Assembly: GCA_034423575.1 (NCBI GenBank)
Contig: DAOUIF010000036.1
Location: 9,563-73,562, forward strand
Length of the DNA: 64,000 nt
From: Dehalococcoidia bacterium
GTDB taxonomy: Bacteria > Chloroflexota > Dehalococcoidia > Lucifugimonadales > UBA3495
Reading direction: 5' to 3'
The position numbers and the translations under genes were made by a program. Below are positions 4,373-54,842 of this stretch, piece by piece. The notes under the pieces are model-generated. The model searched no databases. It was not told the origin of the DNA and saw nothing but the letters and a program-made list of their open reading frames with translations. How positions within the stretch are numbered: the stretch's first letter is position 1; each line of letters opens with the position of its first letter.

Positions 4373-4466
4373 GGTCGTATTTGCTCCTTCAAGCGTCCCG
4401 AAACCGGGAACTGTCGACGTCCGTATCTGATACCATACACCCTACCGCAGTATCGGGAGGCCGTAT

Positions 4467-5678
4467 ATGGTCGATTACGCATCCCTCTTTTCCATCAATC
4501 TGCCCCGCTCAGTGGCCTCTCCGCCCGGATCGGACGCGTCGGTAAGGTACGTATTCTCGATTACCAACGCGGTGCCGGAGGTGGTCGACGCTGACCAATA
4601 CCTGGCCGCCATCCGGACTGGACTGGAAACCAACGGTGGAGCGTCGCTGGCAGGCTATCCGCCCCCGGGCGGCCACGTGGGACTGAGGGAAATGATCGCG
4701 GAGCGCCTGGCAGCCAACCGCGGTTATCAGGTCTCCCCCAACGATGTGTTCATCTCGGACGGGGCTGGCGGCGCCATCGCCATCGTCCTGGAATCCTTCA
4801 TCAACCCGGGCGACGCCGTCCTGGTGGAGGAATTCACCTATATGGGCAGCCTGCGCATGATGATGGAACGCGGCGCGGAGCCGGTCCATGTCCCTTGCGA
4901 TGGCGATGGAATGTTGCCTGACGCCCTGGAAGACGCCCTGGCATCGCTGGAAAGCGCGGGGCGACGGGCCAAATTCGTGTGGACGATACCGGTGTACCAG
5001 AACCCCCTGGGTTTCACTGTGCCCGAGGCACGGCGTCGGGAGATTCTGGAGGTTGCCCAGAAGTACGGCGTTCCGGTGATGGAAAACGAGTCCTACGCCG
5101 ACTTCCGCATCGACGGCGACCCGTTGCCGCGAGCCATGTCCGGCATCAGCGATCAGGGCGACGTGTTCTACGTTTCGTCATTCACCAAGCTTCTGGGATG
5201 CGGGCTTCGGGTCGGGTTCGGCGTGCTCCCGCCGGGGGTCAAAGACGCGCTGCCGCAGGTCAACGCGGAGAACCTGCCGCGCCGGAGTGTGAGCCACCTC
5301 GCTACCACCATGGTCTACGAATATATGCGGGCGCACGAGGCGGAGCATATCGAGGCCGTCCGGCGAGCGCTCCTGGCGAGGCGCGATGCGATGATCGGAG
5401 CGCTGGAGGACAACTTCCCGTCCTTCTGCGAATGGACCCATCCCCACGGCGGCATGATGATGTTCGTGAAGCTGCCAGAAAACGCCGATACCTGGTCGAC
5501 GCTGGCCAAGGCCACCGCGCGCGACGTCAAATACAATCCGGGTGGCATGTTCCGGTCGGATCGCGGGCGCAACAACCACCTGCGCCTCACCTACAGTCAC
5601 AACTCGCCCGACGAAATACGGGATGGAGTGGCTCGGCTGGCGGAGCTCTTCCGGGAGGAAGGATATTTCGAGGGCTGA
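4467..5678 (+). CDS. PLP-dependent aminotransferase (class I/II fold, 2-aminoadipate/aromatic type)
   Basis: GGGAGG SD at 4455-4460. GYPPPGGHVGLREMIAERL, VLVEEFTYMG and SSFTKLLGCGLRVGF (PLP-lysine context) fit the fold. Confidence 0.75.
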   Translation: MVDYASLFSINLPRSVASPPGSDASVRYVFSITNAVPEVVDADQYLAAIRTGLETNGGASLAGYPPPGGHVGLREMIAERLAANRGYQVSPNDVFISDGAGGAIAIVLESFINPGDAVLVEEFTYMGSLRMMMERGAEPVHVPCDGDGMLPDALEDALASLESAGRRAKFVWTIPVYQNPLGFTVPEARRREILEVAQKYGVPVMENESYADFRIDGDPLPRAMSGISDQGDVFYVSSFTKLLGCGLRVGFGVLPPGVKDALPQVNAENLPRRSVSHLATTMVYEYMRAHEAEHIEAVRRALLARRDAMIGALEDNFPSFCEWTHPHGGMMMFVKLPENADTWSTLAKATARDVKYNPGGMFRSDRGRNNHLRLTYSHNSPDEIRDGVARLAELFREEGYFEG

Positions 5679-5745
5679 TCTGCGTTCGAATATAGCCGTC
5701 CGCATACAACAATCTCTCCAACATAGGCAAGCCGGGGGTGCTGCG

Positions 5746-8535
5746 ATGGTCGTCGTCAGTCCAACGATCAGCGTGACGGTTGATGGGATTCCGGTGAACG
5801 TGGCAGCGGGGGCCAGCGCGCTGGATGCAGTGAATGCGGCTGGCGTGCCCCTCTCCCAATTGTGCAAAGACGCCGATATGCCCGCCATCGGCGCCTGTCG
5901 GACCTGCCTGGTGCAGATTGACGGCATCCGTGGGTTTCCCGCCTCATGCTCGACGCCGGCCACCGACGGCATGGTCATCCGCACCGACGGGCCCGATGCC
6001 CAGCGGATCCGTTCCGGCGTCATCCAACTAACTCTCGGCATGGTGGGCAAAGGCAACGGGTCGATTGACGGCTACGATCTGCTGTCGGACGCAGCCAGCA
6101 CGCACGGGATTTCCCAAACGCGATGGGACCCCCGGCCCCGCCAGCGGACGGACGAGTCCAACCCGGTGTTCGACCTCGCCATGGATGCGTGCATCCTGTG
6201 CGCCCGGTGTGTCAACGCCTGCCAGTCCAGTCACCAGTTCATCGGCGCGATTGACGTGCTGGGTGCGGGCGGTTCGGCTCGTATCGCTACCGCGGGAGAC
6301 AAGCCGCTGGGAGAAAGCATCTGCACCACCTGCGGACAATGCCTCAGCGTTTGCCCAACTGGCGCCATCAGCGTGAAAACACCGCCGGACTCTGCGTCGC
6401 CTACCCGCCAAGTCAAGACCACGTGTCCCTACTGCGGCGTTGGCTGCGGGATCAAACTGGAGGTCAGCGACACTGCAGAAGGACCGGACGCGGGTACGAT
6501 CGTTGCTTCACATGACGATCCCGACAACCTGTCCAGCGTTGGGATGCTGTGCGTGAAGGGACGCTTCGGCTACACCTTCGTGCAGCACGGTGACCGTATC
6601 AAGAAGCCGCTGATACGGGAAGGCGACCGCTTCAGCGGCGACTTTCGGGAGGCGACCTGGGACGAAGCGCTGGACTTGGTGGCCTCGCGGCTGGCCGATT
6701 ACCGCGGCGAATCCTTTGGCACGTTGTGCTCGGCCAAGGCGACCAATGAAGACGGTTACGTGCAGCAGAAATTCGCCCGGCTGATCATGGGCAGCAACAA
6801 CATCGACCACTGCACGCGCCTGTGTCATGCGCCGTCGGTGGAGGCCATGCTGACCTCGCTGGGCAGCGGGGCCACCAGCAATTCGTACACCGATTACGAA
6901 GCGGCGGGGTGCCTGTTGGTCACCGGCTGCGATCCGACAAGCAACCATCCGGTTGCCGCCGCGCGGATGCGTCGCGCCGTAGTGGAACGCGGGGCCGGGC
7001 TAATCGTCATCAACCCCCGTCGCATTGATATGTGCGACTACGCCGACCTGTGGCTGCGTCCTTATCCGGGCACCGACGTGGCCCTGCTGAACGCCATGGC
7101 TCACGTCGTAGTTTCGGAGGGCCTGTCCGATGCAGACTTCGTGACCAACCGCACAGAGGGTTACAACGACTGGCTCGCTATCATTAATCGCTACTCGCCG
7201 GAACGTGCCGCCGCCGTCACCGGAGTTCACGCCGATGACATCCGCGCCGCCGGCCGCCTGTTCGCCCGACCACAGGCGCCGAAGGGCAGCGTCTCCGCGC
7301 CGAGATACGACGGTTCCTGTCTGATCTGGGGCATGGGAATAACCCAGCACACCAATGGCACTCCCAACGTTCACAGCTTGCTCAACCTGGCGCTGGTAAC
7401 CGGGCAGTTAGGACGGCCCGGGTCCGGAGTCTCTCCCTTGCGTGGCCAGAACAACGTGCAGGGCTGCGGCGACGCCGGGTGCTTGCCCAATTCCCTGCCG
7501 GGCTATCAAGGTTTGCGCTCGGACGCTGTTGCCAAGTTCGACGCCGCTTGGGAAGCTGACGGCTCGCTCCCCGAGGTCGCCGGGATGATGGTGACCGACA
7601 TGGTGGATGCCATCGGCGAAGCGGGCGGCGTGCAAGCGATGTACATCACTGGAGAAAACCCGCTGCTCAGCGAGCCGGATCTCAACCGGGCAGACGAGTT
7701 GTTCCGCCGGTTGGACTTCCTGGTGGTGCAGGACATCTTCATGCACGAAACTGCCCTGCTGGCCGATGTAGTACTGCCCGCCACCAGCTTCGCCGAGAAA
7801 GATGGGACCTTCACCAATAGCGAACGACGCGTCCAGCGGGTGCGGCAGGCCGTGGCTCCGGTGGGCAACAGCCGGCCGGATTGGGATATCGTGTGCGACC
7901 TGGCCCGACGGATGTGCGACCGGCTGGATTTGCCTTGGGCAGGGCAGTTCGGTTTTCAGCATCCTGGAGAGATTTTTGAAGAGATGGCTGGTTTAACGCC
8001 GATTCTGGCGGGTATATCTTACGAGCGGCTCGACACCGAAGGCGGGCTCCAGTGGCCGTGCCCGACGCCCGACCATCCCGGCACCAGTTATCTCTATGGC
8101 GAGAGTTTCCCCCGGGGCGACCGGGCCCGGTTCATCGGCTACGATCAGGGGCCGATGGCTGAGGAAACACCCTCAGAGCGGTTCCCTCTGCTGCTGAACA
8201 CCGGCAGGGTCTTGTACCACTGGCACGGCGGTACCATCACCCGGCGGGTCGGCAACCTCCTGGCGCGGATGGCGGACCTCGAAGTGTCCGTCAATCCCGC
8301 CGACGGCGAGCGGTTGGGCTTGCGCGACGGCGAGCCCGTTCGGGTACGCTCTCGCCGCGGCGAACTGACCGGGGTAGCGCGTTTCACCTACCGGATGCGC
8401 GTTGGCGAGATTTTCATTCCCTTCGTGCGGTTGAACGAATCCGCTGCGAATTTCCTGACCAACGCGGTGTACGATCCGGACTCGCGGATCCCGGAGTACA
8501 AGGTATGCGCTGTGCGGGTAGAACCCACCGAGTGA
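5746..8535 (+). CDS. fdhA: Formate dehydrogenase alpha subunit / molybdopterin oxidoreductase with N-terminal 2Fe-2S and 4Fe-4S domains (Cys-type)
   Basis: ORF 5542..8535; ATG 5746 follows GGGGGTG. N-terminus ISVTVDGIPVNV..CRTCLVQIDG (2Fe-2S), CILCARCVNAC and CGQCLSVCPTGA (4Fe-4S), TTCPYCGVGCG (MopB Fe-S), then NNIDHCTRLCHAPSV active-site context with TGT Cys at 6823-6825. Confidence 0.85.
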   Translation: MVVVSPTISVTVDGIPVNVAAGASALDAVNAAGVPLSQLCKDADMPAIGACRTCLVQIDGIRGFPASCSTPATDGMVIRTDGPDAQRIRSGVIQLTLGMVGKGNGSIDGYDLLSDAASTHGISQTRWDPRPRQRTDESNPVFDLAMDACILCARCVNACQSSHQFIGAIDVLGAGGSARIATAGDKPLGESICTTCGQCLSVCPTGAISVKTPPDSASPTRQVKTTCPYCGVGCGIKLEVSDTAEGPDAGTIVASHDDPDNLSSVGMLCVKGRFGYTFVQHGDRIKKPLIREGDRFSGDFREATWDEALDLVASRLADYRGESFGTLCSAKATNEDGYVQQKFARLIMGSNNIDHCTRLCHAPSVEAMLTSLGSGATSNSYTDYEAAGCLLVTGCDPTSNHPVAAARMRRAVVERGAGLIVINPRRIDMCDYADLWLRPYPGTDVALLNAMAHVVVSEGLSDADFVTNRTEGYNDWLAIINRYSPERAAAVTGVHADDIRAAGRLFARPQAPKGSVSAPRYDGSCLIWGMGITQHTNGTPNVHSLLNLALVTGQLGRPGSGVSPLRGQNNVQGCGDAGCLPNSLPGYQGLRSDAVAKFDAAWEADGSLPEVAGMMVTDMVDAIGEAGGVQAMYITGENPLLSEPDLNRADELFRRLDFLVVQDIFMHETALLADVVLPATSFAEKDGTFTNSERRVQRVRQAVAPVGNSRPDWDIVCDLARRMCDRLDLPWAGQFGFQHPGEIFEEMAGLTPILAGISYERLDTEGGLQWPCPTPDHPGTSYLYGESFPRGDRARFIGYDQGPMAEETPSERFPLLLNTGRVLYHWHGGTITRRVGNLLARMADLEVSVNPADGERLGLRDGEPVRVRSRRGELTGVARFTYRMRVGEIFIPFVRLNESAANFLTNAVYDPDSRIPEYKVCAVRVEPTE

Positions 8536-8562: not shown

Positions 8563-9054
8563 CTATTGGCTGCGCAATCGAGCCCGTTCCCGCCCTTCAA
8601 TGAAGTGCACCGCTTCGTCCGGGCTGACCCGACCCACCGGGCCGCTGGCGTACATGGAACCCAGTACGGTGCCCCCGCGCACAAGCAGGAGTTCGGTGGG
8701 TTGGATGTAACCACCGCGGTCGTCGGACCACCAGGAACCGAGCATGTCGGCCTGCTCCCGGGTGACGCCGTAGGCCATGGGGAAGGTGACGCCGGACTTG
8801 GTGGCCATTTCCTCCACAACTTCCCTGGGTTCCACGCTGGCGCCGATTATCGACAGTCCCATCTCGGCAAGAGCATCCTGCTCTGATTGCCACGCGGCCA
8901 ACTGCCGCGAGCAGTACGGTCACCAAACGCCGCGATAGAACAACACGGCAAGGTAACGCGACGACATATCTTTCGGCAGGGTCAGCGTGCCGCCGTCAAT
9001 GAGATTTAGGTCCAATTCGGGCAGACGGTCGCCCTGTTGCAGTTTCTCAGTCAT
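8563..9054 (-). CDS. AhpC/TSA (Prx-like redoxin) family thiol-disulfide oxidoreductase with in-frame TGA at 8922-8920; candidate selenocysteine U45 in a W-U-P-Y-C motif
   Basis: The track shows only 8563..8901 (112 aa). The same frame continues upstream through one TGA to ATG 9054 (GAGGGA SD, 2 nt after the upstream stop): MTEKLQQGDRLPELDLNLIDGGTLTLPKDMSSRYLAVLFYRGVW-TGA-PYCSRQLAAWQSEQDALAEMG. The TGA replaces the first Cys of the family's FYRGxWCPxC motif. Confidence 0.6.
8868..8919 (-). promoter_or_regulatory. Candidate SECIS-like stem-loops downstream of the redoxin TGA
   Basis: In mRNA sense after UGA there are three candidate hairpins. First, CCGUACUGC/GCAGUUGG, a stem with a bulged U (8919-8898). 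Second, UUGGCC-GCGU-GGCAA, a hairpin with a bulged G (8901-8887). Third, CAGAGC-AGGAU-GCUCUUG (8885-8868). All were folded by eye only. Confidence 0.3.
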
Positions 9055-9056
9055 CG

Positions 9057-9575
9057 TTATCCCTCGTTATCGAGCCTTGCTTCGCCGTTGGGAAGGGCGG
9101 GCCAGAACAGCTCGTACAGCCGGTCGGACAGCTCTTCGCATAAGCCTACCCCGGCGGCTACTTCGGTCGCTGTTTCTTCATCCTCGTAAAAGTTGCTGTG
9201 CAACCCCCGGGCCGTGCGAAAAGCGTTGGCAATCCACTCCTGTGTTGCCGTGTCGCCTGCATCGCCAACCAGTCCACCCAACTCTCGAATCACCGTCCAG
9301 ATGGAACCGTGGGAGTGGATGACCCCGCCGTGCCGTGCGCTAACGGCTTTAATGGTCTCGGCGACCATTCCCCATGCCTTATTGGAAGCTTGGGGCAAAT
9401 CACCATCCTCCAGTAAGTGCTTCCATGCACTCGCCCGGAAATCCCGTCCGAGCTGAGCATATTTCTCCGCTGTTCGGCCGGCGTCAGCCGGCTGAACCGG
9501 GTCCCTGGCGGCCGCCAGGCCCCGGGCCACAGCGTCGGCGACGTCACTGTCAGAGAAGGTCAGCGGCGTTGACAT
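9057..9575 (-). CDS. PaREP1-like (HEPN-superfamily related) protein of unknown function
   Basis: ORF 9057..9629; ATG 9575 lies 2 nt after the upstream TAG. HLLEDGDLPQASNKAWGMVAETIKAVSARHGGVIHSHGSIW and ARGLHSNFYEDE resemble my recollection of the PaREP1 pattern (GD.xQASEKxWGA...H.....LHxNFYE). This is family recall, not a search. Confidence 0.4.
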   Translation of the reverse strand: MSTPLTFSDSDVADAVARGLAAARDPVQPADAGRTAEKYAQLGRDFRASAWKHLLEDGDLPQASNKAWGMVAETIKAVSARHGGVIHSHGSIWTVIRELGGLVGDAGDTATQEWIANAFRTARGLHSNFYEDEETATEVAAGVGLCEELSDRLYELFWPALPNGEARLDNEG

Positions 9576-9577
9576 TG

Positions 9578-10801
9578 CTAGTCGCCGACGGCTTCGGCGG
9601 TGGTCGACTTTAGACGCTCGGGCCACCACGGGTCGTCATATTCGTTGAAGAGACCCTTCATGTGGGGCATCACTTCATTGGCGAACAGGTCAGTGTTCTT
9701 CCGTACCAGTTCAGGCGGCATGCTTCCAATCTGGAGCAACACCATGAGGTGTCCGATACGGAGCATCTCGCAGGCCTCGGTTAGCTTGCGCCGGACCGTC
9801 TCCGGGCTCCCGCCGATGACATGGCCCTGCTCGATATAGTCTTTCCAGCTGTTCTCCTGGGCGGTGCGGTGCGCCTCTTCGCCCATCTGCGGGCGCAGGG
9901 ATTTGCGGATGGACTCCAGCGATCGATAACCGGGAGATTCGGCGAAGGGCGGGTACACCCGCAGCATCTTCTCGTAGAAATATTTCACGTGTTGCTCGTA
10001 ATCTTTTTCCGCCTGCTCGTCAGTCTCCGAAACGCAAACCAACTGCAAAAATCCCAAGCGGTGGGGGTTGTCATCGACTCCACGCTCGGCAACTCGCTCC
10101 CAATAGCCCTTGACGATGTTGTGGCCGCGCAGATAGCCGTAGTAGGACAGGTAGCAATACACGTAGTCCCGATCCAGCACCCAGTCCCAAGTCTCCAGGC
10201 TGCCGGACCCGGGGATCCACACCGGCGGGTGAGGCTCCTGCATCGGACGCGGCCAGATGCTGATGTAGCGCAGCTTGTTGTACTTGCCGTTGAAAATCGT
10301 CGGCTGGTGCTGGGTCCAGGCCTGCATGATCACGTCGTGCGCTTCGGTATGGCGGTCGCGCAACGTGATGGGCACCTGGCCGTAGGAGAACGTCGTGTCC
10401 ATTGCGGTTCCCACCGGGAATCCGGCTACCAGACGGCCGTTGGAAATGACATCGAGCATCGCCATCTCCTCCGCCACGCGCACGGGCGGGTTGTACAGGG
10501 CAAGGCTGTTGCCCAATACGATCACAGCGCCGTTGTTTGTGGAGTTCGCCAGCACCGAAGCGATCAGATTGGGCGATGGCATGATGCCGTATGCATTGTT
10601 GTGGTGCTCGTTGACGCAGATGCCGTCGAACCCGACCTCGTCGGCGTAGCGCAACTGGTCGATGTACTGAGCGTAGTATTCGTTGCCCTTGGCCGGGTCA
10701 AAGTTTTCGTTGGGCAGGTCTACCCACGCCGAGTGGTGTTGCTGGGCGAAATCGTCCGGCAGGTCCTGGTATGGCATGAGGTGGAAAAATGAGACTTTCA
10801 T
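9578..10801 (-). CDS. LLM-class flavin-dependent oxidoreductase
   Basis: MKVSFFHLMPYQDLPDDF..YADEVGFDGICVNEHHNNAYGIMPSPNLIASVLA..GRLVAGFPVGT is a typical luciferase-like monooxygenase family sequence. Confidence 0.8.
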   Translation of the reverse strand: MKVSFFHLMPYQDLPDDFAQQHHSAWVDLPNENFDPAKGNEYYAQYIDQLRYADEVGFDGICVNEHHNNAYGIMPSPNLIASVLANSTNNGAVIVLGNSLALYNPPVRVAEEMAMLDVISNGRLVAGFPVGTAMDTTFSYGQVPITLRDRHTEAHDVIMQAWTQHQPTIFNGKYNKLRYISIWPRPMQEPHPPVWIPGSGSLETWDWVLDRDYVYCYLSYYGYLRGHNIVKGYWERVAERGVDDNPHRLGFLQLVCVSETDEQAEKDYEQHVKYFYEKMLRVYPPFAESPGYRSLESIRKSLRPQMGEEAHRTAQENSWKDYIEQGHVIGGSPETVRRKLTEACEMLRIGHLMVLLQIGSMPPELVRKNTDLFANEVMPHMKGLFNEYDDPWWPERLKSTTAEAVGD

Positions 10802-13757: not shown

Positions 13758-14111
13758 ATGAGCACCAACTCCAACACGACCGAGACCGCGCCTGTTTACT
13801 GGCCCCGTGTGAAGCAACTGCTGGATGACATCATGGACCGCTGGATCGAGCGCCACGGTCGCCAGCCGTACCCGGGCATTCACGAATATTGGTGGGAAAC
13901 CCCGGAGGAGTTGGCCGCGTCAGTCCTCAACGGGTATCCATCCATCGAACCGGGAGTGGCTGGGGCCGAAACCCACCTGGTACGTTCACTTCGTCTGGGT
14001 TGTGGGACGTTCGGCCGCATGCCTTTGCGCGGCCCGTTCCTGTCACGCGCCGAGGCGGCGGAGATCGCGGCATGGATCGATGCGGGGATGCCAAAAGGTC
14101 CCGAGAGCTGA
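13758..14111 (+). CDS. Hypothetical protein (117 aa)
   Basis: ORF 13635..14111; ATG 13758 follows GGAGAC. Trp-rich sequence MSTNSNTTETAPVYWPRVKQLLDDIMDRWIERHG. No family recognised. Confidence 0.5.
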   Translation: MSTNSNTTETAPVYWPRVKQLLDDIMDRWIERHGRQPYPGIHEYWWETPEELAASVLNGYPSIEPGVAGAETHLVRSLRLGCGTFGRMPLRGPFLSRAEAAEIAAWIDAGMPKGPES

Positions 14112-14221: not shown

Positions 14222-15226
14222 CTACAGCAATACGGGTTCCTTTTCCTTCTGGTACACCTGTATCCGGCCACGCGTGTGGTCGATGATGGCGATCTGGCCC
14301 GAGTCGGACACGTGCACCGCGCACGGGTTGGCGAAGGCCTTCTCGAATGCGCCACCGTCGTGGATGATCGCCATGGTCCGTTGCCGAATCATGTCCGGAT
14401 TGGAGTTCAACTTGGTTTTGCCCCACTCGGATAGGGTGTAGTCTCCCTTCAACTGGGCGCGGAAGCGTCCGTCGGGAGCAAGAATCTGAACCCGGTCGTT
14501 TTCGCGGTCGCAGACGTAGATATCACCGTCGTTGTCAACGAAGACGGCGTTGGGCCGCTTGAACTGGCCAGGGCCGTCGCCGCTGGAGCCGAAACTGGCT
14601 TGCCACTCGCCGGCTTGGGTGAAACACTGGATACGGTCGTTTCGCCAGTCGGCGACGTAGATCAGACCATTCTTGTCCAAGCAGAGGCCCCAAGGCATAT
14701 TCAACTGGCCATCAGCCGTGCCGAATTCCCCAAACTGGCTCTTGAACGTGCCGTCCAGCCCGTAGCTCTGAATACGGTGGTTCTTGGCATCCACTACCCA
14801 AACGGTGTCCCCGTCAATCCTGATGCCCGAGGGGCCGTTGAACTCTCCGGGCCCATCGCCAGCGGTACCCCAGTGGGAGACGTAGTCACCGTCTTCTGTG
14901 AAAATGGTGATGCGGTTCAGGTATTCATCAGCGACGTACAGGTTGCCCTCGCTGTCCAGGGCGCAGGAACTGGGCCAGTACATGTCGCCCGGGTCTTCGC
15001 CGAACTTGCTGAACTCGCCAACCAGCTCTTCGTTCAGCGTGGCGACGGTTACATGTACGCCGTCCGGGCGGTTTTCGTAGGAGCGATTGAGGACGTAGAC
15101 CCTGCCTTCGGCATCCACAGCCATGTCCACCGGGTTGCGGAACCCGGTGCCGTTGAACTCATTGCGTCCCACGGAGTGGCTATAGGTAAAGGCGGTGTCC
15201 ACGAGGCCAAACAGATGGGTACTCAT
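14222..15226 (-). CDS. NHL-repeat six-bladed beta-propeller protein
   Basis: Six repeats of the type LYVADEYLNRITIF, VWVVDAKNHRIQSY, IYVADWRNDRIQCF, IYVCDRENDRVQIL and IAIIDHTRGRIQVY. Confidence 0.85.
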   Translation of the reverse strand: MSTHLFGLVDTAFTYSHSVGRNEFNGTGFRNPVDMAVDAEGRVYVLNRSYENRPDGVHVTVATLNEELVGEFSKFGEDPGDMYWPSSCALDSEGNLYVADEYLNRITIFTEDGDYVSHWGTAGDGPGEFNGPSGIRIDGDTVWVVDAKNHRIQSYGLDGTFKSQFGEFGTADGQLNMPWGLCLDKNGLIYVADWRNDRIQCFTQAGEWQASFGSSGDGPGQFKRPNAVFVDNDGDIYVCDRENDRVQILAPDGRFRAQLKGDYTLSEWGKTKLNSNPDMIRQRTMAIIHDGGAFEKAFANPCAVHVSDSGQIAIIDHTRGRIQVYQKEKEPVLL

Positions 15227-25354: not shown

Positions 25355-25834
25355 TCAGCCTCCTTGTCCGGCAGCGGCGGCAGCCAGAGCGGCCCTGACG
25401 ATGTTGTTGTAGCCGGTACAGCGGCACATGTTCCCTTCCAGGCCGGCCCTTACTTCCTCGGCCGACGGGTTGGGATTGCGCTCAATGATCTCGGTGACCG
25501 TCATGATCATGCCGGCAGTGCAGTATCCACACTGGAGGCCGTGGTTGTTCCAGAAGGCTTCCTGAACGGCAGTCAGGTTTCCGCCGTCAGCCAGGCCCTC
25601 GATGGTAGTCACATTGGCGCCATCAGCCTGCGCGGCAAAAGCGGTGCAGGATTTGACGGTGACTCCGTTCATGCGAACCACGCAGGCCCCGCACTGGCTC
25701 GTGTCGCAACCAATCTTGGTGCCGGTCAGGTTCAGGGTTTCGCGAAGGAAGTGCACGAGCAGGGTGCGTGGTTCCACTTCAGCGGAATGCGAGCGGCCAT
25801 TCACGGTGACCGTGATGGGTACTTTATTCGGCAA
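25355..25834 (-). CDS. coxS: Molybdoenzyme 2Fe-2S small subunit (CoxS-like)
   Basis: [67 protein letters not shown] start at 25834 follows GGAGG. Confidence 0.9.
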
Positions 25835-32606: not shown

Positions 32607-33335
32607 TCAGTCAGCCACCGCCATCAGCGCCGGCTCGCTTTCGCTTCCGTTGCGCGACCTGCCGGCCGCCTGCCATGGGATGTACTGCTTCCACTCTTCC
32701 AGGATCGTGCGGTTTTCGAGGATGCGGTAGGGATTGGGCTGCGGGGCAGTTGGCGCCCGGCGCAGCTTCATATTGGCCTCTTCCGGAGTGCGACCTGCTT
32801 TGGCGAGGTTGCAACGACCGCAAGCGGCCACAACGTTATCCCAGGTGTGGGGGCCATGCTGCCGGCGGGGCACCACGTGGTCGAGCGTAAGCTGTTGGGA
32901 GCGCTTGCCGCAGTATTGGCAGGTGTAATGGTCCCGCAAGAACACTTCTTTCTTGGACAGGCGGCGCGGCGCGAACGGTCGCTTGACCAGGTACACCAGC
33001 CGTATGATCGACGGAGCGTCCAGCGATGCGCTGTAAGTGCGAATCCGGGACGCCTCGGCCCTCTGTTCCAGGAGCTCGGCCTTGCCCTTGGCGACAAGCA
33101 CGATTGCCCGACGAACCGTGCAGACGTTGACCGGAACGTAGTTCAGGTTCAACACCAACACCGGGGCGGTGAGGCGACCCGGAATCGGAGCCCCTTTGCG
33201 TTGATCTTCCTCCGAAACTGGAGCGACGTCTGCCTTGCCGGGATTGCGACCCGAACCGTTGGCGCTGGGTTGTCGACCATTGTTCCGGTTTCTGGCCGCA
33301 CCCTTTTTTCGACCCGGTCGTCCCCGGCTTGCCAT
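32607..33335 (-). CDS. HNH endonuclease with a basic, Gly/Arg-rich N-terminal region
   Basis: ORF 32607..33434; start taken as ATG 33335. FLRDHYTCQYCGKRSQQLTLDHVVPRRQHGPHTWDNVVAACGRCNLAKAG is the HNH motif. Confidence 0.85.
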   Translation of the reverse strand: MASRGRPGRKKGAARNRNNGRQPSANGSGRNPGKADVAPVSEEDQRKGAPIPGRLTAPVLVLNLNYVPVNVCTVRRAIVLVAKGKAELLEQRAEASRIRTYSASLDAPSIIRLVYLVKRPFAPRRLSKKEVFLRDHYTCQYCGKRSQQLTLDHVVPRRQHGPHTWDNVVAACGRCNLAKAGRTPEEANMKLRRAPTAPQPNPYRILENRTILEEWKQYIPWQAAGRSRNGSESEPALMAVAD

Positions 33336-36805: not shown

Positions 36806-37075
36806 ATGGCTCAACGGCCCGACGTCAAGCGCATGGAAATCGAAATCGTTTACTGTTGGGATTGAGGACACGCCGGACGCGCGGCCTGGATGGCCAGCGA
36901 AGCATTGACCCGCACCGGCGACAACATATCGACGTTCAAACTGACCCCCGGAGATCACGGCAAGTTTGACATCCTGATCGACGGTGAATTGGTGGGCGAA
37001 CACAAGCACACCCCTGATGCCCACCTGTTCCCGGACCTGCAGGACCTCATGGCGGCAATCAACGATCGGATGTAA
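36806..37075 (+). CDS. SelW/Rdx-family thioredoxin-fold protein with in-frame TGA at 36863-36865; candidate selenocysteine U20 in a C-x-x-U motif
   Basis: The track shows only 36890..37075 (61 aa). The same frame extends upstream through one TGA to ATG 36806 (AAGGGAGGG SD 5 nt upstream): MAQRPDVKRMEIEIVYCWD-TGA-GHAGRAAWMASEALTRTGDNISTFKLTPGDHGKFDILIDGELVGEHKH. This fits the Rdx pattern I.YCxxU....RA...A..L......L.PG..G.F.v..DGeL. Confidence 0.65.
36880..36899 (+). promoter_or_regulatory. Candidate bacterial SECIS stem-loop downstream of the SelW-like TGA
   Basis: CGC-GGCC / UGGAU loop / GGCC-A-GCG is a 7-bp stem with a bulged A. The loop G residues are 26-27 nt from the U of UGA. Folded by eye. 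Confidence 0.35.
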
Positions 37076-37613: not shown

Positions 37614-37718
37614 ATGATTGAACGCCTGATGGCATAGAAACAATTTACCGTATGCTCCCGGCTTACGTAAATCCGCTGAGAATATTTCAGCCACTGGAAA
37701 TAAAACACAACACGAGCG

Positions 37719-38423
37719 ATGTCATCCCTTTCAGGCGGACCAGGGACCAGTCCTATGACGGCCATACCCCCCGGTGAAGTCCCCGAGGTGGTCATTTCCA
37801 GGTTGCCTCAATACGTTCGTATCCTCTCGCAACTGCTGGACTCGGGCGGCGAGGTGACCAATTCTCAACAGTTGGGCGAGCAGTTGCAGGTTACTCCGGC
37901 CCAGATTCGCAAGGATCTATCCTACTTCGGCAGGTTCGGGAAGCAGGGCCGAGGCTACGTCGTGCGCGACCTGTTGCGGGAACTCAAACAGATCCTGGGC
38001 CTGAACTCGGAATGGAACGTGGCTGTCGTCGGCGTGGGCCGGCTGGGGAACGCCATCCTGAACTACCCCGGCTTCAATCCCGACGGGTTCCACCTGGTGG
38101 CGGCGTTCGACAACAACTTGGCCAACGTGGGCCGTGAGGTCGGCGGCGTATCCGTTCAACCGATGGTCGAGATGGCGCAGACGGTCGCCGAACGAGACAT
38201 CAGCATCGCCATTGTCGCCGTTCCCAGCGCACACACGCAGACCGTCATCGACCAACTGGTGGGATGCGGGGTGCGGGCGATCCTGAATTACGCGCCCATC
38301 AACGCCCAAGTCCCAGACGGTATCCGGGTGCGCAACATCGACCCGGTGTTGGCCCTCCAGTCGATGACCTACTACCTTACCGAAGGTGGTCCCTGGGCCA
38401 ACGGCTCCGCGCCGGCGGGCTGA
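37719..38423 (+). CDS. rex: Redox-sensing transcriptional repressor Rex
   Basis: VISRLPQYVRILSQL..NSQQLGEQLQVTPAQIRKDLSYFGRFGKQGRGY..VAVVGVGRLGNAILNY. Confidence 0.9.
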   Translation: MSSLSGGPGTSPMTAIPPGEVPEVVISRLPQYVRILSQLLDSGGEVTNSQQLGEQLQVTPAQIRKDLSYFGRFGKQGRGYVVRDLLRELKQILGLNSEWNVAVVGVGRLGNAILNYPGFNPDGFHLVAAFDNNLANVGREVGGVSVQPMVEMAQTVAERDISIAIVAVPSAHTQTVIDQLVGCGVRAILNYAPINAQVPDGIRVRNIDPVLALQSMTYYLTEGGPWANGSAPAG

Positions 38424-54581: not shown

Positions 54582-54842
54582 TCACCGTTGTTCACGAGGC
54601 GGGACGATCCATGCTGCCAGTGCCGGCATCACCGACAGCAGCGCTGCCGCCGCGATTTTTGTGTATCCCCCGCCGTAAACCAGGCTCAGCGTCCACAACA
54701 GTCCGAAGCAGATCGCGCCCACGATGATACCGGCGATGATTATGATCTCGGGCCGGTGGTTCTTCTTCATTGCGATCTGCCGGGCGATAAGGCAGCTGCC
54801 CAGAAAAACCACCACGCAGGCAATCGTGATACGGATCAGCAT
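54582..54842 (-). CDS. Small hypothetical membrane protein (86 aa, 3 predicted TM segments)
   Basis: MLIRITIACVVVFLGSCLIARQI..IIIIAGIIVGAICFGLLWTLSLVY..AAAALLSVMPALAAWIV. It is wedged between the two CoA-transferase genes. Confidence 0.45.
   Translation of the reverse strand: MLIRITIACVVVFLGSCLIARQIAMKKNHRPEIIIIAGIIVGAICFGLLWTLSLVYGGGYTKIAAAALLSVMPALAAWIVPPREQR

Follow-up and report, generated by a model that had tools for sequence, protein, structure and literature searches.

A 64,000-nucleotide (64-kb) stretch of contig DAOUIF010000036.1 from a Dehalococcoidia bacterium, referred to here as the window, very probably carries a genuine selenocysteine (Sec)-encoding gene on the minus strand at 9054..8563, and incorporation of Sec at its in-frame TGA is predicted. 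The putative selenoprotein gene is complete, with 163 codons, of which codon 45 would encode Sec, followed by a TAG stop. Its product would be a redoxin of the AhpC/TSA family with a peroxiredoxin (Prx)-like thioredoxin fold and the motif U45-P-Y-C48.

Translation of the minus strand from 9054 to 8563 gives a single frame with only one internal TGA, at 8922-8920, and the conceptual product reads MTEKLQQGDRLPELDLNLIDGGTLTLPKDMSSRYLAVLFYRGVW-[TGA 8922-8920]-PYCSRQLAAWQ...RSQ-TAG, the context at the recoded site being ...LAVLFYRGVW-TGA-PYCSRQLAAW... The ATG start codon (9052..9054) is preceded by a Shine-Dalgarno-like GAGGGA (9060..9065) that shares nucleotides with the final codons of the upstream PaREP1-like gene (9629..9057), whose TAA at 9059-9057 lies 2 nt before the ATG, and an equivalent ATG or GTG with a purine-rich Shine-Dalgarno-like sequence is found in the sampled orthologues. 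With Cys substituted at codon 45, the product matches the Pfam domain AhpC-TSA (PF00578) at 65.1 bits (cut-off 26) over residues 8-130 of 163; since the match covers both sides of the TGA, the domain runs through it. Gene callers stop at the TGA and therefore report a 44-aa open reading frame (ORF) and a 99- or 112-aa fragment. The ORF list for the window divides the locus into 44 aa (9054..8920) and 112 aa (8901..8563, TTG start), and each of the public records seen holds a 44-aa ORF together with a piece of 99-116 aa, labelled 'redoxin domain' or 'hypothetical', from which the active site is missing. A first-pass annotation of the window had proposed this frame and start site, an AhpC/TSA-type redoxin with the TGA at its redox Cys, and a gene that standard callers would truncate or miss, and on each of these points it was right.

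The comparative evidence comes from a scan in which each GTDB species was represented by one genome; it returned 240 relatives, and the best 80 of these were used. All of these 80 are metagenome-assembled genomes of Dehalococcoidia/SAR202/Chloroflexota, and their proteins are 56-97% identical to the redoxin and match residues 1-163. Together with a 4.38-Mb contig (L001) and the window itself they form a set of 82 loci, or 83 when a further contig, L084, is included. Codon 45 is TGA in 82/82 loci and in 83/83 with L084; TAA, TAG or a sense codon occurs in none. The orthologues' own terminator is TAG in 43 of the 82 loci, TAA in 21 and TGA in 18. For the 42 codons upstream of the TGA the ratio of non-synonymous to synonymous polymorphism (pN/pS) is 0.28, compared with 0.44 for the 30 codons downstream, and the upstream part has entropies of 0.66/0.33/1.41 by codon position and no stops. 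Judged from these alignments, the upstream 42 codons are under purifying selection, and the earlier suggestion that the 44 codons before the TGA belong to the protein agrees with their conservation in 82/82 loci. Codons +1 to +3 after the TGA (Pro, Tyr and Cys) are likewise kept across the orthologues with synonymous variation, and therefore in-frame translation goes on across the TGA.

Homologues without the TGA point in the same direction. In a protein search nearly all close homologues were found to have been called as 99-116-aa C-terminal pieces with 55-70% query coverage, and the few full-length ones read WCPYC or WWPYC at the active site. Three metagenomic homologues have a Cys codon at position 45, TGC in L082 and TGT in both L083 and L085, and the TGA-type and TGC/TGT-type genes are, to judge from their codons, a classic Sec/Cys pair. 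The WWPYC form is seen in four database proteins (P0022, P0024, P0028 and P0090), and the one that was checked (L084, 559-1056) has in its DNA both the TGA and the core of the selenocysteine insertion sequence (SECIS) described below. As the L084 DNA reads TGA, on a contig of 1.1 kb, the Trp stems from the gene caller's choice of a code in which TGA is Trp, and the WWPYC entries would appear to be hidden selenoproteins with the wrong residue.

The nucleotides just 3' of the TGA are near-invariant (CGGCAGTT[G/A]GCCG) despite the free synonymous choice available in these codons. Arg at +5 is CGG in 79/82 loci (background in the same genes 29%), Gln at +6 is CAG in 82/82 (background 68%), Leu at +7 is TTG or TTA in 82/82 (background 18%), and for Ala at +8 the codon is GCC in 78/80 (background 52%); the Arg at -4, on the other hand, is written with six codons. 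The frozen synonymous sites accompany a bacterial SECIS-like hairpin on the minus strand at 8888..8913, which starts 10 nt downstream of the UGA and has about 10 bp with one bulge and the apical loop AGUUG. Its near-invariant core of 13 nt is made up of CGGC (8907-8904), AGUUG (8903-8899) and GCCG (8898-8895), and the loop (8899..8903) lies at nt +20..+24 from the U of the UGA, with 16 nt between UGA and loop and the G-U at loop positions 2-3. Among the orthologues the hairpin takes the form CGGC-AGUU[G/A]-GCCG, extended by 2-6 further pairs, with AGUUG as the loop in 65/83 and AGUUA in 18/83. In three species (L060, L065 and L070) a CGC Arg codon is accompanied by compensating changes in the 3' arm, which give a shifted GCC-AGUU-GGC hairpin with an AGUU tetraloop. 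The TTG at 8901-8899, from which the ORF finder starts the 112-aa fragment, is a Leu codon inside the apical loop; it is not a start codon, because 18/83 species have TTA there.

Pairing in this hairpin is conserved and to some extent covaries. Across 78 distinct sequences 86.9% of cells were paired, compared with 31-46% when the 3' arm was slid by 1-3 columns, and none of 500 shuffles matched the observed pairing or covariation score. At pair 18-32, 55 sequences have G-C and 17 have U-A; the two versions differ by synonymous choices at third codon positions (GTG/GTT, GCG/GCT), which go with an Ala/Glu change at codon +9. The published model of the bacterial SECIS (bSECIS) has a loop of 3-9 nt on a stem of 4-16 bp, with a G within the first two loop positions and G or U directly after it; the loop lies 16-37 nt from the UGA, and the minimum free energy (MFE) is -7.5 kcal/mol or lower (2026 review, PMC13188914). 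The hairpin lies within all of these limits, with a 5-nt loop, 6 contiguous bp (10 with the bulge), a spacing of 16 nt and a local MFE of -16.4 kcal/mol, and the local MFE is at or below -7.5 kcal/mol in 81/83 orthologues. The three Cys-form genes encode similar residues at this place, those of L085 being the identical R-Q-L-A, with the codons AGG CAG CTC GCG (R-Q-L-A), CGC CAC CTT GCC and CGG CAC CTG ACC; the hairpin is absent from L082, L083 and L085, which fold only to -3.1 to -4.1 kcal/mol. Where the first-pass annotation had noted three stem-loops downstream of the TGA, only the one at 8913..8888 has comparative support, and that one is the SECIS candidate.

Several observations weigh against a Sec-encoding gene with this hairpin as its SECIS. 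A plain MFE fold of 8860-8925 (66 nt) does not outperform shuffled sequence (z = -1.06), the same holds for 8875-8922, and the signal emerged only with comparative data and local folding. RNAalifold, applied to a 57-nt alignment, prefers an overlapping alternative hairpin (columns 11-15/21-25 plus 2-4/28-30). Furthermore, the stem is mostly invariant, so that a single pair supplies most of the covariation, and the sequences are related by descent. No selA, selB, selD or tRNA-Sec was seen in the 64-kb window with ARAGORN, Rfam and tblastn: ARAGORN found no tRNA in the window, and approximate E. coli SelA/SelB/SelD queries gave no tblastn match in the window or in 81 loci, 1.7 Mb in all. The division between oxidoreductase and peroxidase is also interpretive, and peroxidase activity is possible, not implied. 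As to the RNAalifold alternative, it has no two-sided changes and leaves the switch at columns 18/32 and the loss of the signal in Cys-form genes unexplained; it was set aside, though kept as a possible competing fold. Rfam at its gathering threshold gave no match in the window, and we know of no bacterial SECIS family in Rfam.

We infer the Sec machinery of the source genome from relatives and from a second selenoprotein gene. In L060, L065 and L070 ARAGORN places a tRNA-SeC with the anticodon TCA downstream of the redoxin orthologue, at a distance of about 4.4 kb, on the minus strand at 14852-14946, 14734-14828 and 14558-14652, respectively, near AsnRS, GlnRS and HflK/C genes, and Rfam RF01852 confirms that of L060 at 70.3 bits (gathering score 47). 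The L060 ORFs beside this tRNA that are SelA/SelB/SelD-like in size proved to be AsnRS, GlnRS and HflC/HflK. The three species with a linked tRNA-Sec are those with the CGC codon and the shifted AGUU-tetraloop hairpin. Another orthologue, 91% identical, comes from 'SAR202 cluster bacterium bin87' (L015), and the annotation of bin87 counts three SelA (COG1921), one SelB (COG3276) and one SelD (COG0709) (Slaby et al. 2017, Table S4, 16th column; PMC5649159). Moreover, the ten bacteria richest in selenoprotein genes in BSepDB (2026) include Dehalococcoidia metagenome-assembled genomes, with 49 and 46 such genes (PMC13326102).

The second candidate gene lies on the plus strand of the window at 36806..37075 and would encode an 89-aa protein of the SelW/SelT/SelH (Rdx) family with the motif C17-W-D-U20. 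Its product reads MAQRPDVKRMEIEIVYCWD-U-GHAGRAAW..., with the TGA (36863-36865) at the U of CxxU, and it matches Pfam Rdx at 52 bits (cut-off 22.6) and NCBIfam TIGR02174 (CXXU_selWTH) at 37.8 (cut-off 34.2). A hairpin GGCC-UGGAU-GGCC follows at +21..+33. The presence of this SelW-like gene, as predicted from its sequence, supports Sec decoding in the source genome. With standard ORF calling this gene, too, would be lost or cut short. A relaxed scan of the window returned 19 TGA sites, of which only 8922 (minus strand) and 36863 (plus strand) look coding. Four other same-frame ORF pairs split by one TGA (CoxS/CoxL at 25355, membrane protein/CaiB-type at 54582, HNH/Smr at 32607 and one at 14109) were rejected as ordinary adjacent genes whose starts come just after the stop.

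Other explanations of the interrupted frame fare poorly against these data. A pseudogene or an error of sequencing or assembly, in which the TGA would have arisen by nonsense mutation or by miscalling of TGC/TGT and the full-length protein would not be made, might be read from the public calls that split the locus into 44-aa and 99/112-aa ORFs, and a single window is unable to exclude an error. The TGA occupies the same codon in 83/83 orthologues (80 species), further stops are absent, selection is visible on both sides (pN/pS 0.28 upstream and 0.44 downstream), and the window is identical over 2300 nt, TGA included, to two independent public assemblies (Logan SRR10406098 and JGI 3300009928). 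This explanation is therefore refuted already by the comparative data and its probability is negligible, which also settles the concern over assembly raised at the first pass. If TGA stood for Trp or Gly throughout the genome (codes 4/25), codon 45 would give a residue other than Sec, and this would fit those database entries that read WWPYC; in the entry checked, L084, the Trp goes back to the gene caller. TGA is an ordinary terminator in the window, ending the FdhA-type (5542-8535), Rex (37704-38423), CoxS-type (25849-25355) and aminotransferase (4431-5678) genes, and it ends 18/82 redoxin orthologues, so the genetic code is standard, as had been argued from ordinary TGA stops elsewhere in the window; the GC content of 62% also speaks against reassignment. 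With such terminators in both the window and the gene family, reassignment has been refuted and is hardly conceivable.

It is also highly improbable that the locus makes two products, a 44-aa peptide and a truncated redoxin begun at the TTG (8901) or at an ATG (8862), for example by termination-reinitiation, with the conserved nucleotides serving initiation. The TTG at codon +7 is kept in 65/83 and is the start chosen by ORF tools, but the 18/83 species with TTA would be unable to initiate there, and the P-Y-C-x-R-Q codons between the TGA and the TTG are conserved as protein with synonymous changes, which indicates that they are translated in frame. The 112-aa piece would in addition lack strands beta1-beta3 and the whole redox motif, and the Cys-form homologues are continuous single genes. 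Readthrough independent of a SECIS, in which a near-cognate tRNA would decode the UGA as Trp, Cys or Arg and the hairpin would do no more than slow termination, is very unlikely. Sequence alone is silent on which amino acid goes in, and sel genes were not seen in the window. Against this, the site is that of a redox-active Cys and the homologues that lack TGA carry Cys there, the hairpin fits the SelB-type bSECIS geometry, including the loop G-U and the 16-nt spacing, tRNA-Sec and SelA/B/D are found in relatives, and the window holds a second classical CxxU selenoprotein gene.

The predicted structure of the Sec-containing redoxin agrees with its domain assignment. The AlphaFold2 (AF2) model has a Prx/BCP fold, with a mean predicted local distance difference test score (pLDDT) of 80.9 and a predicted template modelling score (pTM) of 0.78, and places U45 in the loop between a strand (34-40) and a helix (47-57) that carries C48 in its first turn. 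In Foldseek the best match is Bcp4 (3hjp; template modelling (TM) score 0.80, E 7e-12), and many Prx structures are matched with a probability of 1.0. Among solved proteins, the ResA/StoA thiol-disulfide oxidoreductases are closest in sequence; their WCPxC aligns with WUPYC at E of about 3e-4, and the TGA aligns with the first Cys of the ResA CxxC. No NCBIfam model reaches its cut-off (BCP 31.4 of 140 bits, ResA 25.2 of 170, SelL-related (SelL_rel_redox) 17.3 of 120, PrxU 12.8 of 270; the PrxQ model is also far below), and automated pipelines will therefore keep missing the gene. The Thr three residues before the peroxidatic Cys of canonical Prx is replaced by Sec in G-V-W-U-P-Y-C, and membership of ResA/TlpA is likewise not borne out, given the 25.2 bits against 170 and the absence of a hydrophobic N-terminus. 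Inspection of the sequence found no signal peptide or membrane anchor, and the redoxin is presumably cytoplasmic. In our reading, Sec45 would replace the Thr of the Prx TxxC, Cys48 would be the equivalent of the Prx peroxidatic Cys, and the invariant Q118-P119 would take the place of the Prx catalytic Arg and resemble the thioredoxin cis-Pro. The first-pass placement of the TGA at the catalytic Cys stands in that it is the first residue of UxxC and aligns with the first ResA Cys, and is refined in that Cys48 is the likely equivalent of the Prx peroxidatic residue.

Taken through translation and catalysis, the predicted mechanism would be as follows. On reaching UGA-45, the ribosome would meet the downstream hairpin with its AGUUG loop, which would recruit SelB-GTP-Sec-tRNA(Sec), and Sec would be inserted in place of termination according to the standard bacterial SECIS mechanism. 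The protein would then act as a cytoplasmic thioredoxin-like selenol/thiol-disulfide oxidoreductase, in which Sec45, exposed at the N-terminus of helix alpha1, may attack a disulfide, sulfenate or hydroperoxide substrate. Cys48 would resolve the intermediate to an intramolecular selenenylsulfide, and a thioredoxin-type reductant could recycle it.

Descriptions of Prx-like Sec proteins with a thioredoxin-like UxxC go back to 2004-2005, and the Sargasso Sea study reported 22 Prx-like sequences with UXXC in place of the TXXU of Sec-Prx (PMC1088965). The Global Ocean Sampling (GOS) study lists 'Prx-like 1, pfam00578, UxxC' with 225 selenoproteins and 2,740 Cys homologs (PMC2398784), and the 2026 review has a 'Prx-like thiol:disulfide oxidoreductase, PF00578, UxxC/UxxU' as a high-confidence prediction (PMC13188914). 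By the definitions of GOS Table 2 and of that review, the redoxin shows both defining features of Prx-like 1, the PF00578 domain and the UxxC motif, and on domain and motif it is best filed in the Prx-like UxxC class, of which WP_010940744.1 is a published member. It further shares with the Prx-like 1 selenoproteins the position of Sec as the first residue of UxxC, a SECIS directly downstream, the existence of Cys homologues and a marine microbial origin. The present clade differs from them in that it is confined to Dehalococcoidia/SAR202 in the sample, has an invariant C-terminal (M/L)YASGPVGR and a near-invariant 13-nt SECIS core, and includes almost no Cys forms among close relatives.

Other known systems resemble the redoxin in part. 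BCP/PrxQ, Prx6 and PrxU (TxxU) have the same fold, with Cys48 of the redoxin at the position of their peroxidatic Cys, but the redoxin has W-U-P-Y-C, with Sec for the Prx Thr, and Q118-P119 where Prx has Arg. ResA/StoA/TlpA give the best sequence matches among solved structures, and the alignment of WCPxC with WUPYC implies CxxC-type chemistry, although the similarity is weak and the redoxin is without their N-terminal membrane anchor or signal sequence. SelL and SelL-related proteins are similarly Prx-like with a thioredoxin fold and Sec in a CxxC-equivalent motif; SelL, however, has UxxU, and the redoxin reaches only 17.3 against 120 on SelL_rel_redox. As for the SECIS, the hairpin resembles that of E. 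coli fdhF in lying within the coding sequence immediately 3' of the UGA, in having G-U in a small apical loop and in agreeing with the bSECIS consensus, whereas its sequence is different, its spacing of 16 nt is at the lower limit of the model and SelB binding is here predicted. The loop G-U is at +21/+22 in the redoxin and at G23/U24 in fdhF.

These findings do not reveal a new mechanism: Sec insertion would follow the standard bacterial SECIS/SelB route. The family had been described before, and the wealth of selenoproteins in Dehalococcoidia is already on record. The redoxin would be an added member, and possibly a lineage-specific subfamily, of the known Prx-like selenoproteins. The main value of the findings is the correction of a systematic annotation error, in which the active site is lost from split gene calls. 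In addition, UGA would encode Sec in the source genome, that of a marine, SAR202-type member of the Dehalococcoidia, where 64 kb hold two selenoprotein genes. This fits recent reports of large selenoproteomes in marine and sponge-associated Dehalococcoidia and implies that an abundant lineage of the deep ocean and of sponge symbionts requires selenium. The alignment of 83 SECIS sequences, together with matched Cys-form negative controls, also offers a clean example set for SECIS models.

A more speculative proposal, which we consider possible but rather doubtful, is that the redoxins form a distinct, SAR202/Dehalococcoidia-wide subfamily that is almost wholly Sec-dependent, and that their link to a monooxygenase could point to (hydro)peroxide detoxification or thiol repair in SAR202 catabolism. 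The basis for a subfamily is the TGA in the best 80 of 240 species-level hits, the invariant YASGPVGR and the Gln-Pro in place of the Prx Arg; in addition, the nucleotides of the SECIS core have hardly changed among proteins that are down to about 57% identity. If true, the redoxin would have a dedicated role during oxidative catabolism of recalcitrant organic matter, a SAR202 hallmark, in keeping with the operon-like monooxygenase arrangement in closer relatives.

The gene neighbourhood itself is variable. Upstream of the redoxin, and apparently operonic with it, is a PaREP1/PaREP8-family gene (9057-9629, minus strand), preceded by a luciferase-like monooxygenase (9578-10801, minus strand). 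PaREP1/PaREP8 is nominally an archaeal family. The monooxygenase is found upstream in 52/81 loci and the PaREP1-like gene in 42/81, mostly in closer relatives. The surroundings of the redoxin, with the monooxygenase, PaREP1-like and convergent FdhA-type genes, are conserved in those relatives only and therefore define no partner, and a universal synteny partner was rejected on this ground. The FdhA-type molybdopterin oxidoreductase (5542-8535, plus strand) is convergent to the redoxin, with its TGA stop 28 nt from the redoxin's stop, and carries Cys (…TRLCHAPSV…), not Sec, where Sec-dependent formate dehydrogenases carry U.

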